A stretch of 42,796 nucleotides of DNA from Candidatus Uhrbacteria bacterium CG_4_10_14_3_um_filter_41_21 (GTDB lineage Bacteria > Patescibacteriota > Patescibacteriia > UBA9934). The stretch lies in the NCBI GenBank assembly GCA_002782865.1, contig PFJC01000046.1, positions 1 to 42,796 of the forward strand, in the 5' to 3' direction. How positions within the stretch are numbered: the stretch's first letter is position 1; every line of letters begins with the position of its first letter. Below, piece after piece: positions 98 to 41,141 of this stretch. A model generated the notes under the pieces. The model saw only the letters and a program-made list of their open reading frames with translations. It was not told where the DNA came from and searched no databases. A program made the position numbers and the translations under genes.

Positions 98-125
98 CAA
101 AACCCCCGCGAAAGCGGGGGTTTTG
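98..125 (+). terminator. Rho-independent terminator
   Basis: CAAAACCCCCGC-GAAA-GCGGGGGTTTTG, 12-bp perfect stem with GNRA loop; small UUCG hairpin at 82-95 just upstream. Confidence 0.85.
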
Positions 126-128
126 TGT

Positions 129-159
129 CAGACGGTGGTCACTTAGTGACCACCGTCTG
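129..159. repeat. REP-like palindrome, GTCAC-N3-GTGAC family, single copy (locus A)
   Basis: CAGACGGTGGTCACT-T-AGTGACCACCGTCTG, 15-bp perfect arms; 19-nt core identical to the RAYT flank at 5769-5787. Confidence 0.85.
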
Positions 160-160
160 C

Positions 161-189
161 TTGCAAACGGCTTGTATTTACGCTAAAAT
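161..189 (+). promoter_or_regulatory. sigma70-like promoter, near-leaderless for the TPR gene
   Basis: TTGCAA-17 nt-TAAAAT ending 8 nt before ATG 198. Confidence 0.6.
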
Positions 190-4323: not shown

Positions 4324-4655
4324 TTTTTCAAATTGCCTTAATTGCCTTTTCATTATTTGGTATTTTGCATGTTTCTAGGCAGTACAGAAGTCAGAAGGTT
4401 AGCGTGTATTGGTTTTTAATCTGGTTTGTATTTTGGTTGATCGTTATTGCGGTTGCACTTTTTCCAGAGGCAACAGACATTATTGCGGATTATGTTGGTG
4501 TAGAAAAGGGAGCGGACTTAATCGCCTATATTGCGATTGTCGTGCTTTCCTACTCGATGTACCGAGTTTTAGTGAGGCTGGAAAGAATGCGTCAAGAGAT
4601 GACGGACTTAACTAGAAAGATAGCAATAGAAAAAGAAAAAAATAATGAAACCTAA
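4320..4655 (+). CDS. DUF2304-like small membrane protein
   Basis: About 3 TM helices, 'IADYVGVEKGADL' motif and coiled tail; coupled to the GT2 by an ATGA overlap. Confidence 0.75.
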   Translation: MIFQIALIAFSLFGILHVSRQYRSQKVSVYWFLIWFVFWLIVIAVALFPEATDIIADYVGVEKGADLIAYIAIVVLSYSMYRVLVRLERMRQEMTDLTRKIAIEKEKNNET

Positions 4656-5721
4656 AGTTGCAATAATTTATCTTCCATACAATAACCTCCGTTATATTCC
4701 GGAGGTTGCTGATTCATGGGTTGTTCAAGATTATCCGGCTGATAGGATAGCAATTTTAATAATTCCAAACGGAAGTAGCGATGGTTCTCAAGATTTTGTA
4801 AAAGATAATATTTTGCCAAGACAGGAAGTTGATTTGCCAGAAGTTATAATGATTGATGACGGAATAAATCATGGCTTTGCCGGTGGGAATAATTTGGGAA
4901 TTAAATGGGCATTGGAAAATGGTTTTGATTATGTTTTTTTAAATAATGGAGATTTAAAATTACATCCAAATACAATTTCAGAATTAGTAGAAGTAATGGA
5001 ATCAGATAAAAGCATTGGCTCGTCTCAGTCGCAGATTATGCTTTGGAATAATGAAAACACGGTAAACACAACCGGAGGAGTAATCCATGTAGCTGGTTAT
5101 GGTTATGCGCGTGACAACGGTAAGAATATTTTAGATATTAAAGTGCAAGATAAAGAAGAAATAGCTTACTGCTCGGGCGCGGCTGTTATTTATAGTTTGG
5201 CCGCGCTTAAAAAAGTTGGATTTTTGGAAAAAGGTTTTTTCATGTATCACGAGGATTTAGAGCTTGGACTGAGATTACGATTCGCGGGATATAAAAATGT
5301 ATTATCCATAAAATCTTTAGCTTTTCACGATTATAAGTTTGGAAAAAACTCGAAAATGTTTCAGTGGATTGAAACCTATCGTTATGTAGTTCTTTTGTCG
5401 TATATGAGGTTTAGGACTCTAGTTCTACTTTTTCCGCTTTTGCTGATGATTGAAATTGGTGTTTGGCTTATGGCTTTAAAGGGTGGTTGGCTCAAGGCAA
5501 AGTTTAAGGCATTAATCTCTTTTTGGTCACCAAAAAATTTAAGGTTAATAAAAAAAATGCGGAGGCGAGCACAACACCTAAGGGTTATTAAAGATAAGGA
5601 TTGGTTAAGGTTTGTGTCTGGTAGAGTTGAAGATCAAGGTAAAGAGTTACAACTGATGAATATTATCAATGATGTTATTGAGGGCATTTGGCAATTAGCG
5701 AAAAGGAATATTGATTGGTAG
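4645..5721 (+). CDS. GT2 glycosyltransferase (rhamnosyltransferase-like)
   Basis: NGSSDGS, NHGFAGGNN, FLNNGD, FFMYHEDLEL. Confidence 0.88.
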   Translation: MKPKVAIIYLPYNNLRYIPEVADSWVVQDYPADRIAILIIPNGSSDGSQDFVKDNILPRQEVDLPEVIMIDDGINHGFAGGNNLGIKWALENGFDYVFLNNGDLKLHPNTISELVEVMESDKSIGSSQSQIMLWNNENTVNTTGGVIHVAGYGYARDNGKNILDIKVQDKEEIAYCSGAAVIYSLAALKKVGFLEKGFFMYHEDLELGLRLRFAGYKNVLSIKSLAFHDYKFGKNSKMFQWIETYRYVVLLSYMRFRTLVLLFPLLLMIEIGVWLMALKGGWLKAKFKALISFWSPKNLRLIKKMRRRAQHLRVIKDKDWLRFVSGRVEDQGKELQLMNIINDVIEGIWQLAKRNIDW

Positions 5722-5765
5722 TCAGCGTGTTATCCAGTGATCGTTAACATTATTGGATGGATCAG

Positions 5766-5810
5766 AATGTGGTCACTTAGTGACCACATTGGTAACTAAG
5801 TGACCACATT
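5766..5810. repeat. 45-nt REP doublet immediately 5' of the RAYT (locus B)
   Basis: AATGTGGTCACTTAGTGACCA-CAT-TGGTAACTAAGTGACCACATT; 21-bp arms with 1 mismatch, each arm itself palindromic; abuts ATG 5811. Confidence 0.9.
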
Positions 5811-6509
5811 ATGAGGAATATTGAGTTTATCACAAATGAATATTATCATGTATTCAATCGCGGAGTAGATCGGCGCGCTATATTTTTAGACGATCAGGAT
5901 TTATTTAGATTTTATAAGATGATGTACTTATTTAATGATGTGAATTATGAGAATCGTAGGGGTGATGAAGAAATAAATACTTTACTTCTGGCAAATTCTA
6001 ATGTTGATATAGTTTATAAAGATAAACTCATTCGCATATTGGGTTTCTGTCTGCGTCAAAACCATTTTCATTTGTTCGTTGAACAGTTAGTTGATGATGG
6101 AATTTCGAAATTTATGCATAAAATAGGATCTGTTTATTCAAAGAAGTTTAATAAAAAAAATAACAGAAAAGGAACTTTATTTGAAGATACATTTGAAGCG
6201 AGACATATAGATCACGATTCTTATTTTAAACATATTCTGCGTTATATTCATTTAAATGTCCTAGATGAGGAAATGCCTGAATGGCGCCAGGGCAAGATTT
6301 GTGATTGGGAGAAAGCTTTAAATATTTTGAATTCTAATCAATGGTCAAGTCACTTGGCATATGTGGGTATAAAACAGCAATTACCAATCATTGATGAAGG
6401 GTTTATAAATGAATATTTTGAATCAGTGGATGATTACACGGCTTTTTTAAGGGAATGGGCACAAGCAACAGATACAACGTGGTCATTTAGTGACCAATGT
6501 GGTAACTAA
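5811..6509 (+). mobile_element. rayT: REP-associated tyrosine transposase (RAYT; IS200-like Y1 HUH endonuclease)
   Basis: YYHVFNRG, HUH motif NHFHL, RKGTLFE..F, catalytic Tyr in RYIHLN, WSS; flanked by palindromes; no tnpB nearby. Confidence 0.88.
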
Positions 6510-6520
6510 GTGACCACATT
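6476..6520. repeat. 45-nt REP doublet overlapping the RAYT stop codon (locus C)
   Basis: AACGTGGTCATTTAGTGACCA-ATG-TGGTAACTAAGTGACCACATT; arms differ from locus B at 2 positions and the loop is inverted; supplies TAA 6507-6509. Confidence 0.9.
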
Positions 6521-6524
6521 AAAT

Positions 6525-7601
6525 ATGAAAATTGCTCAAGTTACACCAATTTATCCGCCGGCCCCTGGAGGTATGGGGAAGGTGGCAGAGGATTACACAT
6601 TGGCTTTTCGCGCTGCCGGGCACGAAGTTGATGTTTTTTTTCCTGATAAATACCCTGGAATTTTTAAGCACGGCCATGCGGCGATTGTTCCAAGTTTTCT
6701 TTGGAAATTACGCAGTTATGATGTTATTCATCTACATTTTCCATTTTATGGCAGTGATCATTTTATAGCGCTAGCATCATTAATTTGGAAAACACCACTC
6801 GTGATTACCTATCACATGAAAAATCAAGGAAGTGGTTTTTTAAGATTTTTATTTTTGGTGCACAAGCTGTGGGAATGGTTTGTAATGTGGCGCGCTTCAG
6901 CGGTTTTGGTAAGCTCGCTTGATTACGCCCGTTCTGTAAAATTAAAACATAAGAATTTAATATCAATGCCATTTTGGATTGATACTGAAAAGTTTCATTC
7001 AGAAGGAAAGATAGAAAGTCGAAATAAACTTGGAATTTCAATTAATCAAATAGTTTTTTTATTTGTTGGTGCCTTGGATCAAGCTCATTATTTTAAAGGA
7101 GTTGATATTTTGCTTAATGCTTGTTCAAAATTACGACTTGATAATTCTTGGCAATTAATTATTGTAGGAGATGGAAATCTTAAAGTTAGGTTTGAGGATT
7201 TGGCACGAGCTAAAAATTTAGAAAAAAAAGTTTTGTTTACAGGCAAGGTGTCTGATAAAGATTTACCTGATTATTATCGCGCGGCCGACATCCATATTTT
7301 ACCTGCAATTGATCGTTCGGAAGCGTTTGGTTTGGTAACGCTAGAGGCAGCCGCATCTGGCAAGGCATCGGTTGTTAGTGATTTACCTGGAGTAAGAACT
7401 TTGGTTGAGCATCAAAAAACTGGTTTAGTAATTCCGGTTAATGACGCTCAGGCTCTAGTGGTGGCATTGACTTGGTTGGTACAGCATAAAGACAAAATTT
7501 CAGAATTTGGCCAAAATGCGCGAAAAATGGCTGTGGATAAGTATAGTAAACAAATTATTTTACAAAAGTTGCAGCAGATTTATAAAGGCGGTAAGGTTTA
7601 G
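6525..7601 (+). CDS. GT4 glycosyltransferase
   Basis: MKIAQVTPIYPP..GG, FVGALDQAHYFKG, SEAFGLVTLEA; start moved to ATG 6525. Confidence 0.92.
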   Translation: MKIAQVTPIYPPAPGGMGKVAEDYTLAFRAAGHEVDVFFPDKYPGIFKHGHAAIVPSFLWKLRSYDVIHLHFPFYGSDHFIALASLIWKTPLVITYHMKNQGSGFLRFLFLVHKLWEWFVMWRASAVLVSSLDYARSVKLKHKNLISMPFWIDTEKFHSEGKIESRNKLGISINQIVFLFVGALDQAHYFKGVDILLNACSKLRLDNSWQLIIVGDGNLKVRFEDLARAKNLEKKVLFTGKVSDKDLPDYYRAADIHILPAIDRSEAFGLVTLEAAASGKASVVSDLPGVRTLVEHQKTGLVIPVNDAQALVVALTWLVQHKDKISEFGQNARKMAVDKYSKQIILQKLQQIYKGGKV

Positions 7602-41088: not shown

Positions 41089-41141
41089 ATAAAGTGAGGC
41101 AACTTGGTTACCTCATTGGTAACCAAGTTGCCTCACTTTAT
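41089..41141. repeat. REP doublet (locus G), diverged homolog of the RAYT flanks
   Basis: ATAAAGTGAGGCAACTTGGTTACC-TCATT-GGTAACCAAGTTGCCTCACTTTAT, 24-bp perfect arms; 33/45 identical to locus B without gaps. Confidence 0.85.

Follow-up and report, generated by a model that had tools for sequence, protein, structure and literature searches.

A RAYT-like gene bracketed by 45-nt REPIN-like hairpin doublets in a Candidatus Uhrbacteria genome: a probable compact REPtron

To our knowledge, systems made up of repetitive extragenic palindromic (REP) sequences and REP-associated tyrosine transposases (RAYTs) have been studied almost only in Proteobacteria, where the REP hairpins are long, bulged and very numerous. 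In the REPtron of Escherichia coli (TnpA-REP/RAYT, YafM, structure 4ER8; REP and bacterial interspersed mosaic elements), inverted pairs of the gene's own palindromes stand on either side of it, each hairpin type has a single gene, and the hairpin has a foot of the GT[AG]G type. The REPIN-RAYT systems of Pseudomonas (Bertels and Rainey 2011, PMC3116915; RAREFAN preprint) consist of single-copy RAYTs, each with its own REPIN family, in which two inverted REPs fold as one long hairpin, form a mobile unit and keep the long hairpin by mirrored compensatory changes. Here we describe a locus in a 42,796-nt stretch of DNA (the window), contig PFJC01000046.1 (C29) of Candidatus Uhrbacteria bacterium CG_4_10_14_3_um_filter_41_21, whose genome (G000) is 883 kb long and 98.6% complete. 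A RAYT-like gene, RAYT1, is bracketed there by two 45-nt hairpin-forming units, and we consider the locus likely to be a compact REPtron, that is, a RAYT gene bracketed by its own substrate, a REPIN-like head-to-head doublet of a short palindrome. Handles beginning with G, C and L denote genomes, contigs and loci.

The locus shares the flanking inverted pairs and the single gene per hairpin type, together with an HUH motif and a Tyr-x3-Asn motif, and E. coli TnpA-REP is its best profile and fold match; GTGG at the foot of its type-A hairpin is of the GT[AG]G type, but it is paired with CCAC and is not kept in most homolog hairpins. The locus differs from that system in protein sequence (~14% identity in the fold alignment) and length (232 aa against 165 aa), in a hairpin that is a short perfect palindrome with a 3-nt loop, no bulge and a base-paired 'double foot', and in a copy number of a handful and not hundreds. 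The REPIN features are likewise found here, the mirrored changes at two doublets (C57 and window 41090), whereas the two halves have no spacer and overlap by 5 nt within 45 nt in all, and each type has 3-5 loci where REPINs have tens to hundreds. Group-3 RAYTs of S. maltophilia and Marinomonas (Corneloup et al. 2021, PMC8266576) resemble the locus in their short perfect palindromes, in enzyme-hairpin co-evolution and in loop bases expected to carry specificity, but they belong to another protein subfamily, the conserved loop is another one (C-TWA-G here), and the GTAG foot is not conserved across the family that we find in the candidate phyla radiation (CPR). REPs of TnpA-Y1 subclass 2.4 (Quentin et al. 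2018, PMC6006769) are of the same 'double foot' kind, with 5' GT[AG]G and 3' C[TC]AC, and the closely spaced head-to-head dimers of Di Nocera et al. (2013, PMC3733652) have partners 1-2 bp apart, fold as one or two hairpins and include intragenic in-frame copies. Both sets of families are, in contrast, GC-rich, abundant and known from Cyanobacteria, Bacteroidetes or Opitutus, and the likeness is one of hairpin type. Insertion sequences (ISs) of the IS200/IS605 family (IS608, ISDra2) share the fold, hairpin ends, which at this locus too would be recognised in single-stranded DNA (ssDNA), a small discrete insert and no obvious target duplication; the locus departs from them in an IS200 model score far below cutoff, Asn for Gln after the Tyr, identical symmetric ends and a lack of multiple identical copies.

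A repeat search of the window returned the two units at 5766-5811 and 6476-6521 (45/46 nt each). Their identity as direct repeats is 89%; read as inverted repeats they are 91% complementary, a match that arises because each unit is nearly palindromic on its own. Within each 45-nt unit, two 25-nt palindromes are set 20 nt apart, start to start, and overlap by 5 nt; the first of them, at 5766-5790, reads AATGTGGTCACT-T-AGTGACCACATT, its arms of 12+12 nt being perfectly complementary around the central T. With up to three mismatches allowed, the 19-nt core of this palindrome (type A; Table 1) gave 10 matches at five window sites, counting both strands, against 0.00 expected from 100 shuffles. The left unit ends at 5810 and the RAYT1 ATG follows directly at 5811, while the right unit encodes the last 10 RAYT1 codons and the stop codon, the TAA at 6507-6509 forming the loop of its second hairpin. 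The right unit ends at 6520, 4 nt 5' of the ATG of a GT4-family glycosyltransferase gene, with AAAT between; this ATG, at 6525, is fixed by alignment of the MKIAQVTP start with relatives.

Folded as ssDNA, each unit has one long hairpin as its minimum free energy structure, at -21.8 kcal/mol for the left unit (z -9.1, 0/200 shuffles as good) and -13.3 kcal/mol for the right unit (z -5.0). The best states with two hairpins reach -12.0 kcal/mol (left) and -10.5 kcal/mol (right). The RAYT1 start codon is base-paired within the left long hairpin. A first-pass annotation, made from the letters of this DNA alone, had described two 45-nt units around an HUH/Y1 gene, foldable as one long or two short hairpins and placed so that the left unit ends at the ATG, while the right unit supplies the stop codon and ends 4 nt before the GT4 ATG, and our coordinates and folding scores agree with this description.

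The same annotation had called the hairpin core non-GTAG and taken it as a sign of a distinct recognition hairpin. Literal GTAG is indeed absent from both units. At the 5' foot stands GTGG, however, which closes the type-A hairpin with CCAC and lies within the published GT[AG]G consensus, GTGG variants of the REP foot having been reported (Di Nocera et al. 2013, PMC3733652). The idea of a distinct core is not supported, as GTGG...CCAC is the 'double foot' REP type and RAYTs with non-GTAG hairpins have already been described (subclass 2.6 and class 3; Quentin 2018, PMC6006769). Similarly, the 'palindrome of palindromes' that had been noticed is real as a structure, but it equals a head-to-head REP dimer of REPIN-like form, whose dual folding is already in print. 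We also considered restriction-site-like cores (CTNAG, GCTNAGC) for the hairpin and dropped them, having found nothing in their support.

The predicted product of RAYT1 carries the motifs NHFHL, RYIHLN and WSS on which its naming as an HUH/Y1 gene had rested, and profile searches bear this naming out. Pfam PF01797 (Y1_Tnp) matches it at 38.5 bits, above the gathering score of 23. Among NCBIfam models, REP_Tyr_transpos (NF047646) is the best match despite a score below its cutoff, and transpos_IS200 (NF033573) falls short of its cutoff of 55 at 14.8 bits. A protein database yielded 116 homologs, of which the nearest non-self ones are 46-48% identical; they are named 'transposase' (Uhrbacteria, Wolfebacteria, Paceibacterota, Campbellbacteria) or 'REP element-mobilizing transposase RayT' in the source records, and more distant homologs come from sulfur-oxidising gammaproteobacterial symbionts. 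In an alignment of 31 homologs, residues H85, H87, Y145 and N149 are invariant, and the 232-aa protein has a C-terminal WSS region of the RAYT type. A profile of this alignment, searched against the PDB, matched 4ER8 (E. coli TnpA-REP) best, at E 0.0014 and with HxH and Y-x3-N in register, followed by ISDra2 TnpA; a PDB search with the single sequence returned a chance match only. With the AlphaFold2 model of RAYT1 (predicted local distance difference test score 90.1), Foldseek placed 4er8_A on top (E 2e-5), followed by IS608 transposases. The catalytic residues of E. coli TnpA-REP are H59/H61, Y115 and N119, with roles given by Messing et al. (2012, PMC3479197). Together, these analyses support the conclusion that the gene product is a RAYT-like HUH/Y1 protein whose nearest match in sequence and fold is E. 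coli TnpA-REP.

Table 1. Coordinates of the features discussed, as positions in the 42,796-nt window
Feature	Position	Strand	Length	Remarks
Upstream GT2-family glycosyltransferase gene	4645..5721	+		Pfam PF00535 Glycos_transf_2; synteny with 7 relatives
Spacer	5722..5765		44 nt	between GT2 stop codon and left unit; part of the inserted segment
Left REP doublet, REPIN-like	5766..5810		45 nt	two 25-nt palindromes, 20-nt register
RAYT-like HUH/Y1 gene (RAYT1)	5811..6509	+	232 aa	Pfam Y1_Tnp; HUH H85/H87, Y145, N149
Right REP doublet	6476..6520		45 nt	direct copy of left doublet (89%)
Downstream GT4-family glycosyltransferase gene	6525..7601	+		Pfam PF00534/PF13439 (Glycos_transf_1/Glyco_transf_4)
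Solitary type-A palindrome	132..156			intergenic; 19-nt core ACGGTGGTCACTTAGTGACCACCGT
Solo type-B doublet	41090..41140			cognate to RAYT2 on C53

Homologs of RAYT1 occur in 36/61 related genomes, often several per genome, although the same-genus genome G001 (82% complete) has none. We surveyed 51 gene copies, with 30 loci returned automatically and 20 further full-length matches out of about 130, keeping to matches at least as strong as tblastn E 1e-20. For each we looked for an exact word common to two stretches, one of 150 nt 5' of the gene and one of 245 nt that spans the stop codon and the sequence beyond it, with random G000 open reading frames (ORFs) as controls. A shared word of at least 12 nt was found at 44/51 homolog loci against 10/279 control ORFs, and one of at least 14 nt at 40/51 against 5/279, so the earlier proposal that the gene is flanked by cognate hairpins extends to its homologs. 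Strictly shared hairpins (perfect arms of at least 7 bp on both sides) occur at 23 loci, and at 14 of these the downstream hairpin begins before the RAYT stop codon ends and overlaps the 3' end of the ORF. We observed that the CTTAG and CTAAG centres contain TAG or TAA, and that at the window locus the loop gives the RAYT1 stop. Some of the shared words are not hairpins, for example the duplicated host-gene ends in L009, L014 and L055. In L009 (G025:C20) and L014 (G044:C2), the RAYT unit is followed by a repeat of the 3' end of the host gene that lies upstream of it, as a 30-nt exact word in L009, and L014 has tandem RAYT paralogs (67% identity) with the same short host-like segment before each.

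The hairpin sequence varies from locus to locus, also between paralogs of one genome, and its arms track the protein tree (Mantel r 0.25, 5/5000 permutations as high); the tree is a Biopython neighbour-joining tree with no support values, so that its clades are indicative only, and the hairpin labels were transcribed by hand. A perfect hairpin centred on C-T-W-A-G was present at 16/51 loci, and on both flanks in 12, against a background of ~0.01 per 400 nt, whereas the GTGG foot is not conserved in most homolog hairpins. The triloop centre, and not the foot, is the recurrent feature across the CPR family, which is in line with loop positions being decisive for RAYTs acting on short perfect palindromes (Corneloup 2021, PMC8266576). 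Two relatives have CGTCAC arms, and for this reason CGTC-tagged REPs were considered; we did not equate the two, because the stems (AT-first), 4-5-nt loops and CCA tail of the published type differ (Di Nocera et al. 2013, PMC3733652). The genome of the closest homolog, G027, has 14 sites of its own hairpin, CGTCACTWAGTGACG; six are paired doublets spaced by 20 nt as in the window, and in one further doublet the partner is 2 mismatches off. A helicase gene between two G027 doublets was considered as captured cargo and rejected, the site being judged an ordinary intergenic doublet. Genomes of ~1 Mb hold up to six or more divergent RAYT paralogs, and paralogs within a genome are 32-67% identical.

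Two further groups of genes came to light in these genomes. Relatives at L021-L036 have a hairpin of the form ACTCCC-(loop)-GGGAGTTTTAT ~20-60 nt 5' of shorter (~200 aa) RAYT-like genes; it is found with many distant homologs and resembles a conserved leader or terminator-like element. Many of these genomes (G018-G057) also have another Y1 family, which is more distant; its open frames are 281-312 aa long and match residues ~75-155 only, at E 1e-9 to 1e-12. This family may be one of the longer RAYT subclasses with a C-terminal domain.

Within G000 itself, a second RAYT (RAYT2) lies at C53:8852-9562. It is 53-55% identical to RAYT1 and shares its layout, but the hairpin is another one, GGCAACTTAGTTACC / GGTAACTAAGTTGCC (type B); its upstream doublet forms a perfect 23-bp long hairpin that ends one base before the RAYT2 ATG. 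G000 thus has one gene per hairpin type and no recent duplicates. In total we found eight doublet loci of the two types and ~4-6 singles. Type-A doublets are those on both RAYT1 flanks, one at C33:5720-5765 and a variant at C57:20268-20314; type-B doublets are those on both RAYT2 flanks, one at C20:5372-5420 and the solo doublet in the window (Table 1). The singles comprise the solitary palindrome in the window, two copies on C14 and another on C56; C7 and C9 have weaker candidates. The eight doublets have 0-4 mismatches per 21 pairs of the long hairpin. In the window's solo type-B doublet the centre is altered in mirror fashion, CTTGG / CCAAG, and the long hairpin is kept; here and in the C57 variant, half-to-half mirrored substitutions leave the long hairpin perfect or near-perfect while the short palindromes have decayed.

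The type-B doublet at C20:5372-5420 (L073) lies in frame within murI, which encodes glutamate racemase, and adds 15-19 residues, about ERGNLVTNEVTKLPQ, that are absent from the MurI of 9/9 relatives. As this solo doublet sits inside murI and is missing in relatives, we conclude that doublets have moved without the gene.

Directly 3' of RAYT2 is a small GC-rich ORF (~56% GC; C53:9607-10113, L067:3357-3863) for a Cys-rich protein with a signal-like N-terminus, of which there is a 69%-identical copy on C51; this ORF, too, is missing at the syntenic site of relatives. On C14 (34463-35326, L006), an 810-bp GC-rich segment (56% vs ~45% GC) with two small membrane-protein ORFs adjoins tRNA-His. It has no mobility gene and is bounded by two copies of a 27-nt palindrome and a partial third half-copy, the palindrome being a close variant of the type-A hairpin (23/25 positions match the type-A unit by our own count).

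This C14 cassette, enclosed by palindromes in the absence of any mobility gene, and the direct-copy relation of the two RAYT1 units would fit an account in which the flanking repeats are target duplications: a solo doublet would first have stood at the junction of the glycosyltransferase genes, and the RAYT would have landed there later by a hairpin-duplicating mechanism. We hold this to be very unlikely. Cognate hairpins on both flanks at 44 of the 51 loci, following the protein phylogeny, would not be expected of a chance target, and the right unit lies within the RAYT1 reading frame and gives its stop, an overlap that recurs among the strict loci.

The compact REPtron interpretation is also informed by how RAYT1 came to its site. 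In 7/7 syntenic relatives with the gene order GT2, small membrane protein, GT2, GT4, the GT2 stop codon is followed by 1 nt and then by the GT4 ATG. G000 has 803 nt at this junction, comprising the 44-nt spacer, the left unit, RAYT1, the right unit and AAAT. Because the glycosyltransferase genes abut in all seven relatives, the whole RAYT1 unit is a secondary insertion between formerly abutting GT2 and GT4 genes, as the first-pass annotation had proposed in placing it inside a glycosyltransferase operon. At the RAYT2 locus, ~1270-1330 nt of extra DNA, including RAYT2, its flanks and the small GC-rich ORF, is missing at the syntenic site of G001, G005, G010 and G011. A RAYT gene with its own doublets has arrived as a unit. 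Among contigs from public reads, one of 5.2 kb in run X23 (on window 5766-6300) joins RAYT1 to the sequence on the left of the C33 solo doublet; the C33 and RAYT1 doublets share an exact 31-mer, and this contig may be an assembly chimera or a real recombinant.

Two clean insertions keep alive a reading of the locus as an autonomous IS200/IS605-like IS, with the 45-nt units as end hairpins, the 803-nt insert moved by 'peel and paste', and the solo doublets as leftovers or derivatives resembling miniature inverted-repeat transposable elements. The discrete insert of ~800 bp with an exact empty site in every one of the seven relatives, the hairpins at both ends in direct orientation, and the patchy distribution among the 61 genomes, G001 included, are what such an element would leave, and the hairpins stand 44 nt (left) and up to 4 nt (right) away from the ends of the insert, distances that resemble those of subterminal IS608-type ends (Quentin 2018, PMC6006769). 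The protein and its copies speak otherwise. The IS200 model score is far from its cutoff, the Tyr motif is the Y-x3-N of TnpA-REP and not the Gln form of IS608, the 232-aa product has the RAYT-type C-terminal WSS region, and both ends are one symmetric doublet in place of distinct left and right ends. Further, no genome contains near-identical copies, the two in G000 being divergent and served by different hairpins. As 0/41 within-genome paralog pairs reach 70% identity, the system does not appear from these sequences to be an IS200 burst, and we regard an autonomous IS as unlikely.

The same insertions would also suit a RAYT/hairpin pair that moves cassettes from hairpin to hairpin, segments between cognate hairpins being excised and re-inserted as a unit at a hairpin or gene junction, with a logic like that of integron attC recombination but with an HUH enzyme. 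Candidate moved segments are the RAYT gene at its two loci and the foreign GC-rich two-gene cassette on C14. If true, this would explain cassettes without a mobility gene in G000, and it would run counter to published work, in which REPtrons are held not to move as units; we think it quite improbable.

With regard to RNA, the window has no T-run 3' of either unit, an Rfam search of the hairpin, run at E up to 1, found nothing but microRNA-like matches below threshold, none of them above chance, and a scan for promoters and terminators found no enrichment (5 promoters found vs 6.5 expected). Across 185,579 species genomes, the exact 19-mer is found in one other genome, a Kaiserbacteria metagenome-assembled genome, where it forms a terminator-like hairpin after a tRNA (L066:1690-1740), with A- and T-runs as in a bidirectional terminator; no RAYT lies within 8 kb of it. 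The 19-nt core stands within a longer palindrome both there and at window 125-165, and outside the core the two differ in paired fashion, GACAG...CTGTC vs GACGG...CCGTC.

The hairpins might accordingly act mainly as RNA, as stabilisers, attenuators or translation blocks, with the Y1 protein domesticated for a host function unrelated to moving them. The pairing of the ATG within the left long hairpin, the lack of promoter enrichment, the Kaiserbacteria terminator-like 19-mer and a RAYT literature that favours domestication (Bertels 2017) lend themselves to such a role. It fails to explain the co-variation of hairpin and protein, the in-frame murI doublet and the insertion of the whole unit, and the missing T-runs and Rfam matches also count against it; of the explanations we considered, we give this one the least credence.

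Direct observations are the layout, the finding that both the paralog and relatives repeat it with co-varying hairpins, the scatter of solo doublets and the insertion of the unit. As there is one RAYT per hairpin type, flanked by inverted pairs, with copies elsewhere and co-evolution of enzyme and hairpin, the system fits the REPtron/REPIN concept, and on balance we judge a compact REPtron to be probable. A number of results weigh against it. The NF047646 score, 40.5 bits, lies below the equivalog cutoff of 80. Seven of the 51 homolog loci have no shared flank word of at least 12 nt, and by the strict criterion only 23/51 qualify and the query locus itself fails. Copy numbers fall far short of classical REP families: each hairpin type has ~3-5 loci in G000, and there are eight hairpin sites in G044 and only three, every one of them at the gene, in G038. 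The two RAYT loci are both insertions and so have an IS-like look, whereas classical REPtrons are described by Quentin et al. (2018, PMC6006769) as not transposing as a unit. The insert also includes the 44-nt spacer, which, compared by eye, has no similarity to the flanks of other copies. Finally, the stretch is present in 23 public runs, and contigs from four of them (X18, X20, X22, X23) contained no joint that skips the insert and no polymorphic empty site; contigs cannot show rare variants, and this result says nothing on present-day mobility.

By analogy with E. coli TnpA-REP and IS608 TnpA, the RAYT1 protein would bind the hairpin on ssDNA, probably recognising it through the conserved C-TWA-G triloop and the stem. 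Tyr145, with a metal bound by H85/H87, would then cleave near the hairpin, and the strands would be rejoined. The outcome would be the movement of doublets to new sites and, occasionally, of the gene with both doublets. RAYT1 lacks a promoter-like signal of its own, and the base of the left long hairpin is predicted to bury its ATG; expression of the gene may therefore be low and depend on read-through from the operon.

Our literature search found no paper treating REP/RAYT in CPR/Patescibacteria, and the sole paper with both kinds of term mentions just a K07491 hit in an archaeon; the supplements of Bertels 2017 and Quentin 2018 may list such genes. We view the system as a compact representative, with few copies, of a kind of bacterial repeat system that is already known. 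Non-GTAG REPs and dual-fold dimers have been described before. Features that appear particular to the CPR family are a C-T-W-A-G centre that recurs, a 20-nt register in which the palindromes overlap, and a copy number that is very low.

The system found here is stripped down, with 25-nt perfect palindromes in few copies, in genomes under 1 Mb with many divergent paralogs, each with its own hairpin. The 51 natural enzyme-hairpin pairs collected form a panel that could open the recognition code of these ssDNA nucleases to direct testing. For genome annotation, doublets add peptides to housekeeping proteins, as in murI, and supply stop codons. The exact empty sites, in turn, indicate that a RAYT gene and its hairpins can arrive as a unit, which bears on how REPtrons spread.

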